UHGV virus genome: UHGV-0048736
Source of the DNA: a virus
Reading direction: 5' to 3' (one strand)
DNA length: 10,511 nucleotides
The notes under the pieces were generated by a model. That model searched no databases, had not been told where the DNA came from, and worked only from the letters and a program-made list of their open reading frames with translations. Both the position numbers and the translations under genes were made by a program. Shown piece after piece: positions 231 through 10,509 of this stretch. Position 1 is the first letter of the stretch; each line of letters begins with the position of its first letter.

Positions 231-517
231 AGATCAACACGCTTTAATCATTATCATTTTCCGGCTATCCGTCATGAAGCTAGTGGATGATCTGCGTGGT
301 GATTTCCACCATTCAGAGCAGGGGCGGTCATCATGCCCATGCCATAACAAAAACCCCATATTCGTGGTTTTTCTGTGTTGTGGCTATTCTGCCGTTGCCG
401 TGCTGGTGGATATTTCCGTTATGGGGATCACCATATCGGCATCATGCCCACCAGCCAGCGCAATTTTGCGCTTTTCTTTAAGTTCAGCAAGTTACCGCGC
501 CGGATTACGCCAATGGC

Positions 518-700
518 TGTTTCCGAAAGAATCAACGGGTTAGGCCTTAATGGGCTGCGTGGTAATTATCAGCATCCAGAATATGACGGGTTATGTTTCC
601 GACCTCCTCAATTTGAGGTTCCCGAAAATATCAACGGGTTAGGCTGGTTTCCCCGATGTTCGCCGCTGGCGAATTTCGAAAATATCAACCAGTTACCGCC
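518..700. repeat. Degenerate direct repeats of about 25 bp, three copies (TTCCGAAA-ATCAACGGGTTAGGC family)
   Basis: tgtttccgaaagaatcaacgggttaggc (518-545), gttcccgaaaatatcaacgggttaggc (618-644), tttcgaaaatatcaaccagttaccgc (674-699); a related CAAGTTACCGCGCC at 487-500. No supported ORF on either strand across 200-690. Confidence 0.5.
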
Positions 701-4139: not shown

Positions 4140-4179
4140 GATCATGTGTGTCAGTGCACCAAAAAGCCTCATATGCAAA

Positions 4180-4217
4180 AGCCCGATAAGCCACCTCTGA
4201 CCTTATCGGGCTTTTTT
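4180..4217 (+). terminator. Hairpin plus T-run, plus-strand (possibly bidirectional) terminator
   Basis: AGCCCGATAAG (4180-4190) pairs with CTTATCGGGCT (4202-4212) around an 11-nt loop, followed by T6 and preceded by A4. No plus-strand ORF upstream. Confidence 0.5.
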
Positions 4218-4392
4218 ATCTGCCTGCAAAGATGTCGAACAAAAATTAACCACAACCATCATCTTTTTTGCATCAAAACAATTAAAAACAATAAATTACG
4301 CTCATGATGATGATGACGATAAAATCACAAAAATGCGCTTTTTTCCGCGCCTCCCGCCCCGTGTTCAGGCCCACCCCGCCAGGAGGACCCGT

Positions 4393-4415
4393 AAAAAAGC
4401 CGGATTGCTCCGGCT
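4393..4415 (-). terminator. Rho-independent terminator after ssb
   Basis: AGCCGGA-ttgc-TCCGGCT hairpin preceded on the plus strand by A6 (4393-4398); 16 nt past the ssb stop. Near-identical to the 1951-1974 terminator. Confidence 0.7.
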
Positions 4416-4430
4416 TCTGTCACTCGTCGC

Positions 4431-4853
4431 TTAAAACGGTATGTTATCCCCGTACGGATCATCATTCCCCGCCTGTTGTTTTGCCCTGTTCAGCGCGTCA
4501 GTAGCCTGGCCCTGTTGACCTTTTTTGCCGCCCAGTCGCGCCGTTCGCGCACTGATTACACTGTCTGCGATAACCTGCCAGCCCTGCCGCGTTTCTCCGT
4601 TCTGCCCAGTCCACTGGCTGATCTGCATGTTACCCGCCACGCTCAGGAGTTCACCCTTGCGGTGCCTTTCCAGTGCTTCGGCCTGTCTGCCAAATGCCAG
4701 GACGGATAACCACATCGTCGCCGTTCCGTCATCTGCCTGGCTGCACGGAAGGGGGACCGCCATACGCGCCAGCGTCATCGGTGTGCCCTTGCTGGTCTGT
4801 TTTACCTGCGGGTCGTCCACCAGCCGCCCGTAAGCGGCTATCTGTGCTGTCAT
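4431..4853 (-). CDS. ssb: Single-stranded DNA-binding protein
   Basis: 140 aa. OB-fold pattern alignable to E. coli SSB (TMWLSVLAFGRQAEALERHRKGELLSVAGNMQISQWTGQNGETR versus [44 protein letters not shown]); Gly/Gln-rich linker; C-terminal tail DDPYGDNIPF like SSB DFDDDIPF. ATGA start/stop overlap with the upstream 85-aa ORF. Confidence 0.8.
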   Translation of the reverse strand: MTAQIAAYGRLVDDPQVKQTSKGTPMTLARMAVPLPCSQADDGTATMWLSVLAFGRQAEALERHRKGELLSVAGNMQISQWTGQNGETRQGWQVIADSVISARTARLGGKKGQQGQATDALNRAKQQAGNDDPYGDNIPF

Positions 4854-5107
4854 GATTCCACCTCTCCGGTTTTAACGTTGATGGTTGTTACCTGTTCCGC
4901 TTCGGCAATCTCCCATTCTGTCAGCGTGGCAAAGTTTGCCGCCGCTGTGGTCATGAATGCGCTTATCAGGTCGGGATGTGCTTTCGCGTATCCTTCCCCC
5001 GTGTTGCGGTCGATGATTTTTATCGCCACTCTCAGCCAGTGCTCTGTAAGGTCAATGGCGCGGTTATGCTGCTTCTTCTGATTATTAAGTTTTCCTGATG
5101 TGCGCAT
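4850..5107 (-). CDS. Hypothetical protein, 85 aa
   Basis: ORF with GAGGGGG Shine-Dalgarno, coupled to ssb by ATGA overlap, immediately downstream of the iteron region. Confidence 0.55.
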   Translation of the reverse strand: MRTSGKLNNQKKQHNRAIDLTEHWLRVAIKIIDRNTGEGYAKAHPDLISAFMTTAAANFATLTEWEIAEAEQVTTINVKTGEVES

Positions 5108-5154: not shown

Positions 5155-5383
5155 TTGTCTACCTTATCAACCTTACTGGCCACCATGCCAGTAATGGCGC
5201 GGCTTTCAGTGGGGTAGAGTGCTTTTATCCACTATCTACCCCGTATCTACCTCCCTGTCTGATTCAGGTAAAATCAGGTAGAGAGGGTAGATAGTAGGTA
5301 GACAGTAAAAAAAGGCTGTCTACCCAAGTTAATGTACTGAATTAAATGTATTTTTCTTTACTCTGGTAGACAGGGTAGACAGC
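5155..5383. repeat. Iteron array with AT-rich spacer: putative replication origin
   Basis: About ten copies of GGTAGA(C/T/G)AG in both orientations (5155-5164, 5213-5221, 5232-5240, 5243-5251, 5277-5285, 5286-5294, 5297-5305, 5316-5325, 5365-5373, 5374-5382). AT-rich stretch at 5326-5360. Directly downstream of the primase/helicase gene. Confidence 0.65.
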
Positions 5384-5395
5384 CATTGCAACAAA

Positions 5396-7144
5396 TTATA
5401 AAAACGCGTCGCAATCGTCTGTTGTTATTGCGTTAGTCTGCGTTACTCCTTTAACTTTCCGCGTAATATATTCATGTCCGTAAACTTTCGCGGCTGGCTT
5501 CATAGCCTTGCCAAAGTCATTTACGTTTAGCGGTTTGCTCCTGCCTGCGTACGCCATAAACGCCAGATAGACGCGGTAAAGGCTGTTTCTGGTCGTGTAC
5601 TTCACTGAATCGCCACCGCCGCCCATCATCAGGCCGCGTGCTTCCTCCAGAAAATTCAGGAACTGGCAAAACTCAATAACCGGATCCGTCTGTTGCTTTA
5701 TTGCCAGTGCTTCATCACCGTCACGCTGTTCAATGAGTAAAGCCCGTGCCTTTTCAGGGTCGGCAAAGTTCGCCAGCAAGCGGCGGATAATGACAGGGAT
5801 TTCAGCCGCGATCTTTTCCGGTAGCTCCCTGTCTTTTTCTGCCTCGCTTACGATGTTATCGAACCGGAATATCACCCGACGACGTGCCACACCTCCGGCC
5901 CGTTCGGTGAATATCATCGGATTGTTATTGGTTGCCAGCACCACCGCCCTGATTACCGCCGTAAAACGCTTTTCATATTTCGGGTTAATTTCCACGGGGT
6001 CGCCGCCCGTGATTTTCTTGATGCCCGTTCCTTCGCCTGTATATTTCGGCTGGTCTGCCAGGACGATAAGACGACTCCCGACAACCTGCGCACGCCCACC
6101 AGCATCATCAAGCGATGTCATTTCAGCGCTTACCGTGTTTTGTTTCCCTGCCAGAAGGCTGGCTATGTGTGTGAATGTACTTTTACCGCTCCCGCCGTCT
6201 CCGGTGGCCTCAATAAACATCTGCCAGTCGTACCGGTTCGCCATAATCATGTACAGCGCGGCACATATACGCATCATCTTGCGCGGGTCTTTTCCGGCTG
6301 CGTGCTCAAGCCATTTATGAAAGTTTGGCGCGTTATCGCGGATGTTCTCCCCGGGTGCTGGTGGCGTGTACTCAATGCCGTTGTGCGTGGTGATCCAGTT
6401 CTCCGGCGTGTGCGGGGAAAATTCCCCCGTTTTCAGGTCAAGCGCACCATTGGCGAACGGCAGCAAATCGCCGGACGGCTCGCCCATTGGTTCGGCAATA
6501 ACTTTTAACGCTTCCACGGCGTTATTGATTACGCGCTTGCTGAAAGTGGCCCTGTGCTCTGAATAGATCGCCACCATTTCGCGGCTCAGCTCCATTGTGC
6601 TGACCGGACACCATACCCCGCCGCGCCATACGTGAACGATTTCACTTTCAGGATGCACACAAACGCCATCAAAGCGCTCGGCAAGCAGCTGCGCACGCTC
6701 ACTGTCTGCCATTTGTGCCAGTTGCGTATTTTTCTGCTCCGGCATGGTAAGCCCTGCGGCAATATTTTCACGCTCAGCATTCAGATAGCGCCGCCAGTTT
6801 TCACACTTCTGGACGTGCATTCCTTCGGGGTAAAAATTTGCGTCCTGAATATCTGCCGCCGCCAGCTTCTGACCAATCTTTTTGGTCTCCACCAAATCCA
6901 GTTCTCCGGCCTGGTACAGCCTTACGCGCTTTTTCCCATCCGGAACAATTTTCAGTGCATCAAGTTCGGCAAGCTGATTTGGCCCAAGCCACACAGGCGG
7001 CACATTATCGCCGGATGCGGGGCCATCCTGCTCCTGCCATTGTTTCGCGTGCGACCAGGCATCACTACCCGCGAAAATAATTACCTCTGTGTCTTTGTGT
7101 TTTATTCCGCGTGGCTGTTTTTTTACGTTCGGTGCCAGTTTCAT
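5396..7144 (-). CDS. Replication protein: primase / SF3 (D5- or P4-alpha-type) helicase
   Basis: 582 aa. Walker A EATGDGGSGKSTF, downstream Walker B-like hydrophobic stretch (RLIVLADQP) and C-terminal region typical of P4-family primase/helicase; N-terminal roughly 250 aa is primase-like. ATGA overlap with the upstream 99-aa gene; CAGGGG Shine-Dalgarno. Confidence 0.9.
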   Translation of the reverse strand: MKLAPNVKKQPRGIKHKDTEVIIFAGSDAWSHAKQWQEQDGPASGDNVPPVWLGPNQLAELDALKIVPDGKKRVRLYQAGELDLVETKKIGQKLAAADIQDANFYPEGMHVQKCENWRRYLNAERENIAAGLTMPEQKNTQLAQMADSERAQLLAERFDGVCVHPESEIVHVWRGGVWCPVSTMELSREMVAIYSEHRATFSKRVINNAVEALKVIAEPMGEPSGDLLPFANGALDLKTGEFSPHTPENWITTHNGIEYTPPAPGENIRDNAPNFHKWLEHAAGKDPRKMMRICAALYMIMANRYDWQMFIEATGDGGSGKSTFTHIASLLAGKQNTVSAEMTSLDDAGGRAQVVGSRLIVLADQPKYTGEGTGIKKITGGDPVEINPKYEKRFTAVIRAVVLATNNNPMIFTERAGGVARRRVIFRFDNIVSEAEKDRELPEKIAAEIPVIIRRLLANFADPEKARALLIEQRDGDEALAIKQQTDPVIEFCQFLNFLEEARGLMMGGGGDSVKYTTRNSLYRVYLAFMAYAGRSKPLNVNDFGKAMKPAAKVYGHEYITRKVKGVTQTNAITTDDCDAFL

Positions 7145-7445: not shown

Positions 7446-7673
7446 TTATTCTCCGGTGTGCTGCGCTTTATTATTCTCGTGAATTGCCATCACTGTATTT
7501 AATTCATTAATAACAGGCGTTAATAGCGTACGCACGGCAGAAAACATCATTGAATCAGATTCATCGCCACTTTCCGGCACATCAATTAACTTAAGTAGTA
7601 ATGCGTCCATTTCCTTTGCGCGGATTAATGCGTTTTCAGAATGAACAAGAACATCAAAGGGTATTTTATGCAT
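7446..7673 (-). CDS. Hypothetical protein, 75 aa
   Basis: ORF with CAGGGGGTGAG Shine-Dalgarno; acidic small protein; 5-nt gap to the next gene. Confidence 0.55.
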   Translation of the reverse strand: MHKIPFDVLVHSENALIRAKEMDALLLKLIDVPESGDESDSMMFSAVRTLLTPVINELNTVMAIHENNKAQHTGE

Positions 7674-7869
7674 GACTCACCCCCTGGCGAATACGGGCAG
7701 CGAATACCATCACGCAGCCATCAGGAGATTGCTGACGCGCTTCCTGTTCGCTGGTGGCCTCAATGGTAATCACGCGCGGTTGTGCAGTGCTCAGGGTGAT
7801 AAAACGCCAGATGTATTTATTCAGGTTGTGCGAGTCCCGCCCTTGCGGGTGTGTGGTATGATTTCTCAT
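7666..7869 (-). CDS. Hypothetical small protein, 67 aa, first gene of the leftward early operon (possibly Icd-like; weak)
   Basis: Taken from the internal ATG at 7869 (GAGG Shine-Dalgarno 6-9 nt upstream) of a spurious 305-aa ORF. The position upstream of the primase mirrors the P4 left operon. The YIWRF...EQEARQ pattern is reminiscent of Icd-like proteins, but that is from memory only. Confidence 0.45.
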   Translation of the reverse strand: MRNHTTHPQGRDSHNLNKYIWRFITLSTAQPRVITIEATSEQEARQQSPDGCVMVFAARIRQGVSHA

Positions 7870-7965
7870 AGCTACCTCGATACTTTCGCTATCGTTGGTG
7901 GTTAGAAGCCCGGTTAGTGTTAGCGCACTGCCGGGTTTCGTCGTTTCTGCACCTTGCGCCAACAA

Positions 7966-8020
7966 GGTGTTGAACACCAATTTAAACCCAGGTGTTAAAC
8001 ACGTCAAGTGTTGAACACTT
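7966..8020. promoter_or_regulatory. Three operator-like palindromes (GTGTT-N-AACAC) in the divergent control region
   Basis: GGTGTT-G-AACACC (7966-7978), GTGTT-A-AACAC (7992-8002), AAGTGTT-G-AACACTT (8006-8020). A possible sigma70 promoter (TTGAAC -35 inside site 3, CATACT -10) faces the plus-strand regulator gene. Confidence 0.6.
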
Positions 8021-8068
8021 ATTTTTTTTCCTGCATACTGCATTTGTTTTTTATGAGGGGTACACCAC

Positions 8069-8248
8069 ATGGCGACAAAAGCAGTAAACGCAAAATCACA
8101 AACCGTTGCGGCAAGGGTTCCGCATGAAGTTATGAACAATGTTGAGGCGGTAAAAATGCCTGGCGAAAGTACGGGGCAATTTGTTACTGCGGCATTAAAA
8201 CGAGAAGTTGAATATCGCCAGCGGCGCAAGGCCAAAGAACCAGAGTAA
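8069..8248 (+). CDS. Small putative DNA-binding regulator, 59 aa (possibly ribbon-helix-helix)
   Basis: Not in the ORF track because it is under 60 aa. ATG at 8069 with GAGGGG Shine-Dalgarno 8 nt upstream; stop TAA at 8246-8248. Translation MATKAVNAKSQTVAARVPHEVMNNVEAVKMPGESTGQFVTAALKREVEYRQRRKAKEPE has a strand-helix-helix-like pattern and a basic tail. Sits immediately downstream of the operator triplet. Confidence 0.6.
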   Translation: MATKAVNAKSQTVAARVPHEVMNNVEAVKMPGESTGQFVTAALKREVEYRQRRKAKEPE

Positions 8249-8290
8249 TCACCATCAGCGCCGTGGTGTAAGGTATTACGGCGCATTGCT

Positions 8291-8479
8291 ATGCAGGACA
8301 ACACAATGACCGATAAAGAATTGACCAAAACATTATCACCGGCACGGAAAAGACGGCGCAGAAAGATAGAGCATGAATCAGAAAGATTCGCGCCATGTGC
8401 TTTTGCCCTTGAGCAATTCCTTAAAGAGTACAGGGAAAAGCGCTCATTGCAGGTATGGCAACGAACTGAACCAGACTGA
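8291..8479 (+). CDS. Hypothetical small protein (62 aa, or 57 aa from the ATG at 8306)
   Basis: ORF downstream of the small regulator gene and upstream of the plus-strand terminator. An AGGA Shine-Dalgarno-like motif favours the 8306 start. Arg-rich, no recognisable motif. Confidence 0.3.
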   Translation: MQDNTMTDKELTKTLSPARKRRRRKIEHESERFAPCAFALEQFLKEYREKRSLQVWQRTEPD

Positions 8480-8546
8480 TTGCATTGCCCACCAGCCGCA
8501 AATGTGGCATTGTTGGTGATGCGTTCAAGTTTAGTGTGTATCCATT

Positions 8547-8573
8547 GGCGACCGCCCCCGGTCGCCTTTGTTT
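8547..8573 (+). terminator. Rho-independent terminator of the rightward regulatory transcript
   Basis: GGCGACC-gccccc-GGTCGCC hairpin (8547-8566) followed by TTTGTTTT. Confidence 0.65.
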
Positions 8574-8593
8574 TATATGTCATATGCTCCCCT

Positions 8594-8803
8594 TTACGCT
8601 GCCTTACCTGAATTAATGCGATCCCGGCTTTTAACCCATTCCATAACCTCGGACAGCAGCCAACCTACAGAACGCCCACCAAGATTACGGCGAGACGGAA
8701 AGCTCCCTTTTTTCTCCAGTTCGTAGCGTGTAGTGCGACACACTCCAGTTAACTTACGACATTCATCCTCACGGATTACGCGATCTTCATTTATTTCACG
8801 CAT
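8594..8803 (-). CDS. alpA: AlpA-family phage transcriptional regulator
   Basis: 69 aa from the internal ATG at 8803 (the 98-aa ORF in the track starts at a GTG inside AT-rich promoter-like sequence). C-terminal half ...RRNLGGRSVGWLLSEVMEWVKSR fits the AlpA-family pattern as I recall it. Located next to the integrase as in P4-like elements and PICIs. Confidence 0.7.
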   Translation of the reverse strand: MREINEDRVIREDECRKLTGVCRTTRYELEKKGSFPSRRNLGGRSVGWLLSEVMEWVKSRDRINSGKAA

Positions 8804-9222: not shown

Positions 9223-10461
9223 TCAAGAATTTTGGGGGTAAATTCGCGGGGTCATAACAACGATTTTTTCATCATTGTTCTGGAGAAGCTCGAGACGGTC
9301 TACCCATAGATTAAGAGCATCACGTTTTGCATCAAGGTAGCGGGAGTGGTTATAGACTCGTTGCATCCCTGGCATCTGGTGGGCTGTAAGCTGCTCGACA
9401 ATATGCGGATCCACGCCTAAATCGTTCAGTATGGTTGTAAATGTGTGCCGGATATCGTGTAACGTCCAGGGGGCTTGATTAATTCGTCTGTGCGCTGTTC
9501 TTCCGTACTCTGCTACCGAAGATTGTCCTTTCAGTTCACCAAGCAATAAGCCTGTGTGTCTGTTCTGCTCCACCAGTTGCGTGACGAACGGCAAAATGCT
9601 TTCCGGTATTGGCCTGAATATGGCGACCTTCGTTTTGCTGTGCTCCTTCGGTACTGTCCAGAGCATTTCTTTAAAATCCCACTCCTGCACCTCAGAGCGC
9701 CTTAGCTCAGTGGTACGGCATCCAAAAACAATCAGGAGGCGAATTAGGGCGCTGTAGTATGGCGGGAATATTTTGTCATCCAGGGCGCGGAGTAATTCCC
9801 CAAGCTCCTTATTTGTTAGTACGCGCTCGCTCACTTCTGCTTTTTTTCCCACATCACCGACAACCATATCATCAAGAACGTTGCTGATTGCGTATCGTCG
9901 TTTTCGGCAGTACTTAAGCGCCTGTTTGCATACCTGTAGCAAAAATCCGGCAGATACTGGGCTTCGCTTTGCCATCTGGTCAAAACATGCCAACCAGTGC
10001 CGTAGCTCGCATTTTTCCAACGGCAAAGCGCCAATCTGGCTGATTATGTGTTTATTGATCCGGCTTTTCAGTGATTCGTAGTCAGTGCGCTTTTCCTTTG
10101 CATACGATTCAAGCCAGTAAGTGAGCGCTTCCTTAACTGTCACGGGGGCTAACGCATCCTGTACAGCACGATTAAGCTCATAGCGCGGATTTTTCCCCTC
10201 AGCCAGCCAGGCGCGACACTGTGCTGCTTTTTCCCTGGCTGCTTTCAGGCTCAGATCGGGATAATTGCCCAGTCTCAGACGTTCCGGTGATACCTGCCTA
10301 CCAGTTCCGGCCCTGTAAGTGAAATACCAGGTTAACAGGCCGCTGGTGGAATGTCTTACGCTAAGATTGCCACCGTCATTAAAAAAGGCGTTTTTTGTGG
10401 TTGGTGATCCGCTTAATTTTCGTAAAAGAGTGTCGCTAAGTCTATGAATTGCGCTGCTCAT
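9223..10461 (-). CDS. int: Tyrosine site-specific integrase, P4-type
   Basis: 412 aa. C-terminal catalytic region with HDIRHT (His-x-x-Arg) and a downstream tyrosine (RVYNHSRYL); N-terminal region typical of the P4-integrase arm-binding domain. Start codon 25 nt from the right att repeat. Confidence 0.93.
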   Translation of the reverse strand: MSSAIHRLSDTLLRKLSGSPTTKNAFFNDGGNLSVRHSTSGLLTWYFTYRAGTGRQVSPERLRLGNYPDLSLKAAREKAAQCRAWLAEGKNPRYELNRAVQDALAPVTVKEALTYWLESYAKEKRTDYESLKSRINKHIISQIGALPLEKCELRHWLACFDQMAKRSPVSAGFLLQVCKQALKYCRKRRYAISNVLDDMVVGDVGKKAEVSERVLTNKELGELLRALDDKIFPPYYSALIRLLIVFGCRTTELRRSEVQEWDFKEMLWTVPKEHSKTKVAIFRPIPESILPFVTQLVEQNRHTGLLLGELKGQSSVAEYGRTAHRRINQAPWTLHDIRHTFTTILNDLGVDPHIVEQLTAHQMPGMQRVYNHSRYLDAKRDALNLWVDRLELLQNNDEKIVVMTPRIYPQNS

Positions 10462-10485
10462 GTTTCGCGTTTCCGGTCATCAAAA

Positions 10486-10509
10486 TTAACTACACCATTG
10501 ACTACACCG
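10486..10509. repeat. Right copy of boundary direct repeat (putative att core)
   Basis: TTAACTACACCATTGACTACACCG, 23/24 identical to 176-198. Confidence 0.6.

Follow-up and report, generated by a model that had tools for sequence, protein, structure and literature searches.

The viral genome UHGV-0048736, a stretch of 10,511 nucleotides that was analysed at its full length and is called the window here, raises a simple question: what does a gene for a protein that binds single-stranded DNA (an SSB) do between the replication origin and the head genes of so small an element, and what ties it to the 85-codon open reading frame (ORF) that it overlaps, here called ORF85? A first-pass annotation, made from the sequence without database searches, had regarded this SSB as unusual cargo and had offered two functions for it, support for the element's own replication or competition for the SSB partners of host and helper phage. 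By its architecture and its kinship with the island EcCICFT073, the window is a Gram-negative phage-inducible chromosomal island (PICI), a phage satellite of Escherichia coli. Our answer is that ssb is probably an accessory replication gene of this island, whose product would coat single-stranded DNA (ssDNA) at the origin and recruit the host DNA polymerase III (Pol III) through its C-terminal tip. Of the two functions offered, support for the island's own replication is the most likely, being the one that fits the gene neighbourhood best.

In Enterobacteriaceae, PICIs act as major carriers of gene transfer and of interference with phages, and their replication has so far been described as needing a Pri-Rep initiator and an origin only. 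An accessory SSB is unsurprising in kind, as mobile elements often carry one. The gene described below stands right after the origin in about one third of complete E. coli genomes and appears to belong to a satellite-specific lineage.

An OB-fold SSB with a conserved tip

The island protein is a bona fide OB-fold SSB. Its 140 residues match PF00436 (E 4.9e-15, 55.9 bits against a cut-off of 26) and TIGR00621 (59.4 bits against a cut-off of 53.95), are assigned to phrog_44 in PHROGs, and match 26 distinct SSB sequences of the PDB at E <= 1e-3. In an AlphaFold2 (AF2) model, residues 1-103 form a strand-rich beta-barrel with one helix (residues 55-62) at a predicted local distance difference test score (pLDDT) of 82-93, and residues 104-140 are disordered (pLDDT <50). 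When this model was compared with the PDB using Foldseek, bacterial SSBs made up 50 of the 50 top matches, with target-normalised template-modelling (TM) scores of 0.6-0.78. The layout is that of an OB fold (residues 1-103), a short disordered linker (approximately 104-130), and a C-terminal tip reading DDPYGDNIPF. Homology search, to which the first-pass annotation had exposed its identification of an OB-fold SSB with an IPF tip, places the protein above the family thresholds, and that identification stands.

The OB domain is under purifying selection, with a ratio of nonsynonymous to synonymous substitution rates (omega) of 0.13-0.25 against four island variants. Among 105 full-length representatives of the SSB lineage clustered at 90% identity, 100 have a tail that ends in -PF, 94 of them in -IPF; the tip is strongly conserved and the linker varies in length and sequence. 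In the chromosomal SSB of E. coli, the aromatic residues W40, W54, F60 and W88 stack on ssDNA and His55 lies at the tetramer interface. In an alignment with an E. coli SSB reference sequence that was entered by hand, W48, F54 and W81 of the island protein correspond to W54, F60 and W88. Neither the SSB, nor ORF85, nor four neighbouring small proteins had a PADLOC match at E <= 0.01.

The gene lies beside an origin and belongs to satellites

As the first-pass annotation had placed it, ssb lies with the iteron origin on one side and a lambda-type head module on the other (Table 1). Allowing at most one mismatch, the motif GGTAGAYAG occurs 15 times in the window, where 2.0 copies would be expected by chance, and 9 of the 15 fall within the origin. 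The 288-bp intergenic region that holds them differs from its EcCICFT073 counterpart at 2 of 288 positions. The pri-rep product shares 92% identity with the primase of EcCICFT073, with no difference from about residue 165 on; pri-rep is the initiator of the replication module that includes ssb. From the primase gene to ssb, a consensus scan of the gene strand listed no terminator-like site. In EcCICFT073 the origin lies immediately 3' of the replication initiator gene, and its deletion significantly lowered colony numbers (PMC6092414). A rep-ori segment of that island, with an insert described as the rep gene and ori only, drove plasmid replication in DH5alpha (PMC6092414). Since rep and ori alone suffice to drive a plasmid, SSB is not needed for initiation as such.

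A blastn census over 5,426 complete E. coli genomes shows how common the arrangement is. A query with both genes matched ssb and/or ORF85 DNA at 2,633 places in 1,866 genomes; ssb alone matched 2,364 places in 1,814 genomes, and ORF85 alone 2,153 places. By inclusion-exclusion, approximately 1,884 places hold both genes, 480 only ssb and 270 only ORF85, figures that are approximate because detection limits differ between the queries. The chromosomal ssb was evidently not matched by the query, as only about one third of the genomes score.

The islands that carry the gene are diverse. Those of O157:H7 carry ORF85 and the SSB next to a RepA-family helicase as replicase, and a capsid-forming PICI with a RepA-family helicase and a full HK97-type head set carries both genes as well. 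An island at tRNA-Pro in Nissle 1917 has an identical SSB, a 92-residue variant of ORF85, a P4-type primase and a different integrase. Across four replicase architectures (P4-type primase, RepA-family helicase, DUF927 and TOPRIM-DUF927) the SSB keeps its position just downstream of the replicase and origin. What follows it varies: perC, ProQ/FinO, lambda-type or HK97-type heads, or none of these, and where a lambda-type capsid module lies near, it comes with either the small terminase TerS or a gene at the Rpp position. This constant site beside the replicase and origin, combined with a variable packaging module, suggests that ssb travels with replication functions and not with packaging.

The lineage itself points the same way. 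Among 50,697 phage records the closest match to the SSB is 32% identical, and a plasmid collection holds few close copies, seemingly integrated islands or chromosome filed as plasmid. A search of 5.8 billion proteins returned hundreds of variants; the 120 best listed are all annotated as SSB, and those with a named source belong to Escherichia, Shigella, Citrobacter and Salmonella. Judged by these comparisons, the lineage is essentially satellite-specific and replicase-independent, which is a new point. Descent of this SSB from a conjugative-plasmid or phage lineage was considered and ruled out on identity, given the 32% best phage match and the few plasmid copies.

The presence of the gene as such is not new. 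The SSB is a standard, already annotated part of a known satellite family, carried by its model member too, and a study of PICI gene content published in 2023 lists 'Primase, SSB and DUF5906' as a replication category that co-localises with mapped origins (PMC10111431). With a standard place in enterobacterial PICIs, EcCICFT073 included, and matches in 1,866 of 5,426 E. coli genomes, the gene can no longer be called unusual cargo, as the first-pass annotation had it. One might still suppose that ssb is cargo that hitch-hikes or decays and at present does nothing for the island. The replication of a plasmid by rep-ori alone would agree with this, as would the islands that lack ssb and the truncated copies that exist, such as a fragment that lies within the interrupted portal gene of a prophage and the frameshifted copies in loci L057 and L073. 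Intact copies are nevertheless present in about one third of E. coli genomes, the sequence is under purifying selection with a conserved tail, and the position is kept in mosaic islands that differ in integrase, replicase and capsid module. We therefore consider idle cargo very improbable.

The overlap with ORF85

On the minus strand, positions 4859-4846 read GGAATC-ATGA-CAGC, where the ssb start codon (ATG, 4853-4851) overlaps the stop codon of ORF85 (TGA, 4852-4850). The Shine-Dalgarno-like run GGAGAGGTGG, which lies four nucleotides before this start and within the 3' end of ORF85, would be the ribosome-binding site of ssb. The same 4-nt overlap is found in EcCICFT073 and in the O157 and Nissle islands. 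A wider set of contexts came from 80 IMG/VR loci that carry ORF85 relatives, of which 37 close and 40 distant loci were analysed. An SSB ORF follows ORF85 immediately at 36 of the 37 close loci, in two cases split by a frameshift, and the 37th ends about 200 bp past ORF85. Among the close loci with a downstream ORF (n=37), the junction is a 4-nt overlap at 21, an 11-nt spacer at 13 and a larger gap at three; two of the larger gaps stem from a frameshifted SSB and one belongs to a distant family member.

Do the two proteins then form an obligate unit, with ORF85 acting, for example, as a chaperone, loader or regulator of the SSB, and the ATGA junction setting their stoichiometry? The recurrence of the overlap in four named islands, the direct succession at 36 of 37 close viral-contig loci and the roughly 1,884 of 2,633 E. 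coli places that hold both genes would be expected if they did. The pairing is, however, broken in many ways. By the approximate count given above, some 480 places hold the SSB and no ORF85, and some 270 hold ORF85 and no SSB. In islands with DUF927 or TOPRIM-DUF927 replicases, the SSB comes right after the origin gap and ORF85 is absent; in one capsid-forming PICI, a 101-codon gene is inserted between the pair; and at 13 of the 37 close loci the 11-nt spacer replaces the overlap. No SSB was detected within 6 kb of ORF85 relatives at the 40 distant loci, and the two genes recombine independently, as EcCICFT073 has an identical ORF85 next to a 74% identical SSB, and Nissle 1917 an identical SSB next to a variant ORF85. 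An obligate two-protein unit is therefore unlikely. The pairing is better described, from these gene orders, as a breakable, lineage-specific feature of enterobacterial PICIs, so that the ATGA overlap reported by the first-pass annotation is confirmed in the window while the coupling it seemed to imply is not obligatory.

ORF85 and the phrog_1231 family

ORF85 itself matches phrog_1231 (E 2.8e-47, profile positions 4-83 of 83), and searches of Pfam, NCBIfam and PADLOC gave no match. It is a real gene, because its omega is about 0.3 (0.27-0.34), and it is under purifying selection. An AF2 model is all-helical at moderate confidence (mean pLDDT 68.8), and Foldseek found no match to this model in the PDB below E 2.9, so that the model offered no hint of a function. 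All 160 close relatives, with identities of at least 65%, occur in Enterobacteriaceae only. When 1.84 billion cluster representatives were searched with a profile, 642 relatives emerged at E <= 1e-3, most of them 60-140 residues long with the common core IDxxFGxGYAKxHPELIAAFMxTAA; distant relatives from this representative library also match phrog_1231, and ten of them gave only sub-threshold noise in Pfam at E <= 1. In 50,697 phage records tblastn found no match to ORF85, which argues that it is not a gene of sequenced phages, despite its PHROG. A scan of GTDB genomes, a collection with one genome per species, gave three loci with relatives; the relative in Methylovulum lies in a phage-like region with a primase, which is on the opposite strand.

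The distant relatives show where the family is found when no SSB accompanies it. With E. coli SSB and the window SSB as jackhmmer seeds, no SSB was detected within about 6 kb at the 40 distant loci. The upstream ORFs that were scanned (n=37) are enriched in primase-helicases and include Prim-Pol (7), VapE-like (5), DUF5906 (3) and DUF927 (2) matches, domains that overlap within proteins. In four independent cases (L034, L035/L041, L043 and L045), an AT-rich gap of 255-346 bp separates a TOPRIM-DUF927, PrimPol-VapE or DUF5906 replicase from the ORF85 relative, and each gap contains 6-9 copies of a locus-specific 8-mer, where shuffled sequences contain at most 3-5. The putative iterons are ACCGACAA in L034, ATCCAACC in L035, AGGTGGCA in L043 and GTTGAGTA in L045. 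The order replicase, origin, phrog_1231, as judged by these repeats, thus recurs without an SSB, in about one fifth of some 31 non-redundant distant loci. The remaining distant relatives stand among small early-region genes, such as repressor-like helix-turn-helix (HTH)/S24 genes and antiterminator Q. Together, these contexts suggest that the deeper association of ORF85 is with replicase-origin units or early regions and not with SSB, and a general link between ORF85 and SSB was ruled out, both by the distant loci that lack an SSB and by the islands that lack ORF85.

Most plausibly, then, ORF85 is an accessory of origin-proximal replication or of early regulation. The link between phrog_1231 and replicase-origin units is absent from the family descriptions that we found, and the position of the family directly after the iteron origins of diverse primase-helicases is a new point. 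A broader proposal would make ORF85 a widespread, hitherto unrecognised replication accessory that acts near the origin of self-priming replicons of the primase-helicase kind, in satellites as well as temperate phages, and that in enterobacterial PICIs has been joined to a satellite-specific SSB to give a three-protein starter set for the replisome (helicase-primase, ORF85 and SSB). We regard this as doubtful at present; if it were true, the tip of the SSB could in addition draw off SSB partners of the host or the helper. The family is a cheap target for finding a new origin-associated factor.

A probable role in island replication

Following induction by a helper phage, we propose that an early island transcript yields the primase-helicase and then ORF85 and the SSB. 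Because the primase gene, ORF85 and ssb are co-oriented, their co-transcription can be inferred, and the stop/start overlap together with a dedicated Shine-Dalgarno sequence suggests coupled translation. The primase-helicase would open the iteron origin, and the compact island SSB would coat the single strands exposed at the iterons. Its conserved ...D-x-IPF tip could then engage the same host partners that the chromosomal SSB has, above all chi, a subunit of the clamp loader of Pol III. ORF85 would be a separate small helical protein, tied primarily to the replicase-origin unit and not to the SSB, and the terminator-like hairpin past ssb might close the replication module ahead of the head operon.

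An island that brings its own helicase, primase and SSB would mainly need Pol III and gyrase from the host. Replication of P4 in vitro, which depends on its alpha protein, needs the host SSB, Pol III holoenzyme and gyrase, and is not known to need DnaB, DnaC or DnaG. The benefit of the island SSB would probably be quantitative, in the form of added SSB capacity during heavy replication of island and helper, and not an absolute requirement. Related islands without the gene pair exist, such as EcCIMP1 as described (PMC11773190), and these, along with the rep-ori plasmid, argue that the SSB is accessory and not essential. If it raises copy number, or permits replication once the SSB of the host is saturated, it would help to determine how often the island is transferred, and engineered delivery vehicles based on PICIs could then make good use of it.

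Several observations weigh against this proposal. Host SSB is plentiful and is enough for the rep-ori plasmid to replicate, so it is not evident why a second one should be needed. The evidence from gene neighbourhood is correlative, and we found no experimental test of PICI SSB function in the literature searched. In the alignment with the hand-entered reference, the position of W40 has no aromatic residue and that of His55 is a Leu; with these changes and an overall identity to E. coli SSB of 28%, neither the DNA-binding mode nor tetramer formation should be assumed. The tip is also less acidic than that of the host protein (DNIPF against DDDIPF), and its altered form in the O157:H7 islands suggests a relaxed or changed tip function in that lineage.

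That altered tip deserves description in its own right. The SSB of the island in O157:H7 strain TR01 (L005, 7919-8329) ends in ...GDDISF and not in ...IPF. In E. coli SSB, the ssb-113 allele changes the penultimate Pro to Ser and disables partner binding. The occurrence of an ssb-113-like Pro-to-Ser change in a common O157:H7 variant is among the modest new points of this analysis.

The conserved tip could also serve a different end. Along the lines of the second function offered by the first-pass annotation, the island SSB might act as a competitor or adaptor for partners, or as a means of interfering with the helper, by titrating host exonuclease I, RecQ, RecJ, PriA or chi, or helper proteins that dock on the tip, such as Red-beta-type recombinases. 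Phage single-strand annealing proteins recognise the C-terminal tip of SSB. Either the island DNA would be protected or the replication and recombination of the helper would be handicapped. A strongly conserved tip behind a variable linker accords with this idea, as does a lineage that is confined to satellites and that sequenced phages do not share, which is what one would expect of a satellite-specific tool. PICIs are also known to interfere with their helpers (PMC6092414, PMC6739421). Yet the OB domain is constrained as strongly as expected for a working DNA binder, the three ssDNA-contacting aromatics are retained, and the gene is constantly placed with the replicase and origin and not with interference or packaging genes. 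In a 2018 study the only interference candidates put to the test were the capsid (c1499) and head-decoration (c1500) homologues (PMC6092414), and the main EcCICFT073 papers, including the 2019 paper on redirection of packaging, do not mention the SSB (PMC6092414, PMC6739421). The protein also lacks a PADLOC match, and the ISF variant of O157 would compete poorly. Partner competition or helper interference is thus quite unlikely as the main function of the gene, and support for replication at the island's own origin remains the reading that we prefer.

The island and its other features

Over all of its 10,511 bases the window is 100% identical to part of the chromosome of E. coli IHE3034, where the island is sited between clpS and cspD; at least 80% of it is present at one place in 36 complete genomes. 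An element of about 10.3 kb is enclosed by near-identical 25-nt direct repeats (174-198 and about 10485-10509), which are likely, by their placement, to be its attachment (att) sites. The repeat reads ATTAACTACACCATT[A/G]ACTACACCG, and in locus L001 it occurs at 4174-4230 / 14485-14541. Every RefSeq-annotated gene of the island is on the minus strand except for two short ORFs on the plus strand. In transcriptional order the minus strand carries the integrase, an HTH regulator, an Icd-like gene, DUF4222, the P4-type primase-helicase, the 288-bp intergenic region and ORF85, followed by ssb and a 68-codon gene, then by genes for a major capsid protein of lambda E type, a decoration protein of gpD type and a scaffold-like protein, and finally by terS, a small terminase gene of Nu1 type, and a 93-codon gene. 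The size, within the span of about 10-15 kb, the att repeats, the terminal integrase, the near-unidirectional genes, the HTH regulator and the pri-rep initiator with an iteron origin immediately 3' are all traits of PICIs. This architecture, together with the kinship with EcCICFT073, bears out the view of the first-pass annotation that the carrier is a satellite. Helper-dependent induction and transfer have been demonstrated for EcCICFT073, a close relative, with lambda and phi80 (PMC6092414, PMC10530653).

Table 1. Features of the window discussed in the text, in order of position.
Feature	Position	Strand	Basis or remark
Hypothetical gene	274-543	+	RefSeq
Terminator-like hairpin GAAGCCGGA-GCAA-UCCGGCUU, then U-run	4393-4418	-	Starts 13 nt past the ssb stop
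ssb, 140-residue single-stranded-DNA-binding protein	4431-4853	-	ORF; RefSeq WP_000126681.1 in IHE3034
ATGA overlap of ORF85 stop and ssb start	4850-4853	-	Read from the sequence
ORF85, 85-residue predicted helical protein	4850-5107	-	First gene past the origin; RefSeq WP_001260558.1, hypothetical
Shine-Dalgarno-like GGAGAGGTGG	4858-4867	-	4 nt 5' of the ssb ATG, within the ORF85 3' end
Iteron origin	5155-5382		9 GGTAGAYAG copies in both orientations around an AT-rich stretch, between primase gene and ORF85
pri-rep, P4-type primase-helicase	5396-7144	-	D5_N, DUF5906, Pox_D5 (Pfam); TIGR01613; phrog_864
YlcI/YnfO family gene	8069-8248	+	RefSeq; NF041551, E 2e-16
HTH regulator	8594-8803	-	RefSeq annotation
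Integrase	9223-10461	-	One end of the island

The hairpin downstream of ssb has a predicted RNA fold of -24 kcal/mol (z -2.28). It is missing from the output of the consensus terminator scan, so its role as a terminator is inferred and relies on the fold. A 22-nt hairpin sequence, AAAAAAGCCGGATT[T/G]CTCCGGC on the plus strand, occurs in 95%-identical copies at 1953-1974 and 4393-4414, one between the scaffold-like gene and terS and the other after ssb; a single transcription stop signal appears to have been used again at both of these boundaries between modules. Towards the left end of the island, next to the module of the Nu1-type small terminase (gene at 1231-1773), a 19-nt repeat, CGAAAATATCAACGGGTTA, is present in three copies that are 89-100% identical (524-542, 623-641 and 677-695, with spacings of 99 and 54 nt). 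These repeats may be cosB-like terminase-binding sites.

Some apparent features of the window are taken as mechanical. On the plus strand, antisense to the gene pair (4431-5107), there are ORFs of 77, 102, 60, 67 and 40 codons that RefSeq does not annotate. A 305-codon minus-strand ORF at 7666-8583 is likewise a mechanical call only; within it RefSeq places the Icd-like gene (7666-7869) and a BRO-N pseudogene fragment (8244-8499). The HTH regulator had no NCBIfam hit that would identify it as AlpA. A scan of the whole window for P4-like CI/seqA RNAs (C4, isrK) or other RNAs found no Rfam family at gathering score.

Comparison with known systems

The closest well-studied system is EcCICFT073. 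It shares with the window the order integrase, alpA-like HTH gene, Icd-like gene, DUF4222, P4-type primase, iteron origin, ORF85, ssb and 68-codon gene, and beyond these the lambda E-type capsid, gpD-type decoration, scaffold-like and final 93-codon genes. Its ORF85 protein is identical (WP_001260558.1), while its SSB has 136 residues and is 74% identical to that of the window. The two islands differ in their site, clpS/cspD here and next to phoQ in EcCICFT073, and in perC, which follows ssb in EcCICFT073 and in the O157 island and is missing from the window. Where the window has its Nu1-type TerS, EcCICFT073 has a 144-codon hypothetical gene, which by its position we take to be rpp.

A mosaic pattern is visible in both close relatives. 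The C-terminal ~420 residues of the primase, the origin and ORF85 are identical or nearly so to those of EcCICFT073 (L008), and the SSB diverges past about codon 33, indicating a recombination breakpoint inside ssb. Compared with the Nissle 1917 island (L009) the SSB is identical, and the ORF85 variant, integrase and att site are different.

ORF85 matches the phrog_1231 profile over its full length. The family itself is unannotated, and it lacks both a Pfam model and a fold that has been solved or matched with confidence.

The chromosomal SSB of E. coli resembles the island protein in its OB fold, the three aligned aromatics, the disordered linker and an acidic tip that ends in IPF. It is longer, however, with 178 residues against 140 and a linker of about 60 residues against about 30, and the island protein lacks its long Gly/Gln/Pro-rich tract. 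Unlike the chromosomal gene, the island ssb resides on a mobile element, and the cell can do without it. Accessory SSBs are carried by other mobile elements too, such as the F plasmid and phage P1. Like them, the island keeps an SSB of its own with a host-like tip beside the essential host gene, presumably as cover for a burst of ssDNA. The setting of the gene is different: conjugative plasmids carry theirs in the conjugative leading region, whereas the island ssb follows the iteron origin of a satellite.

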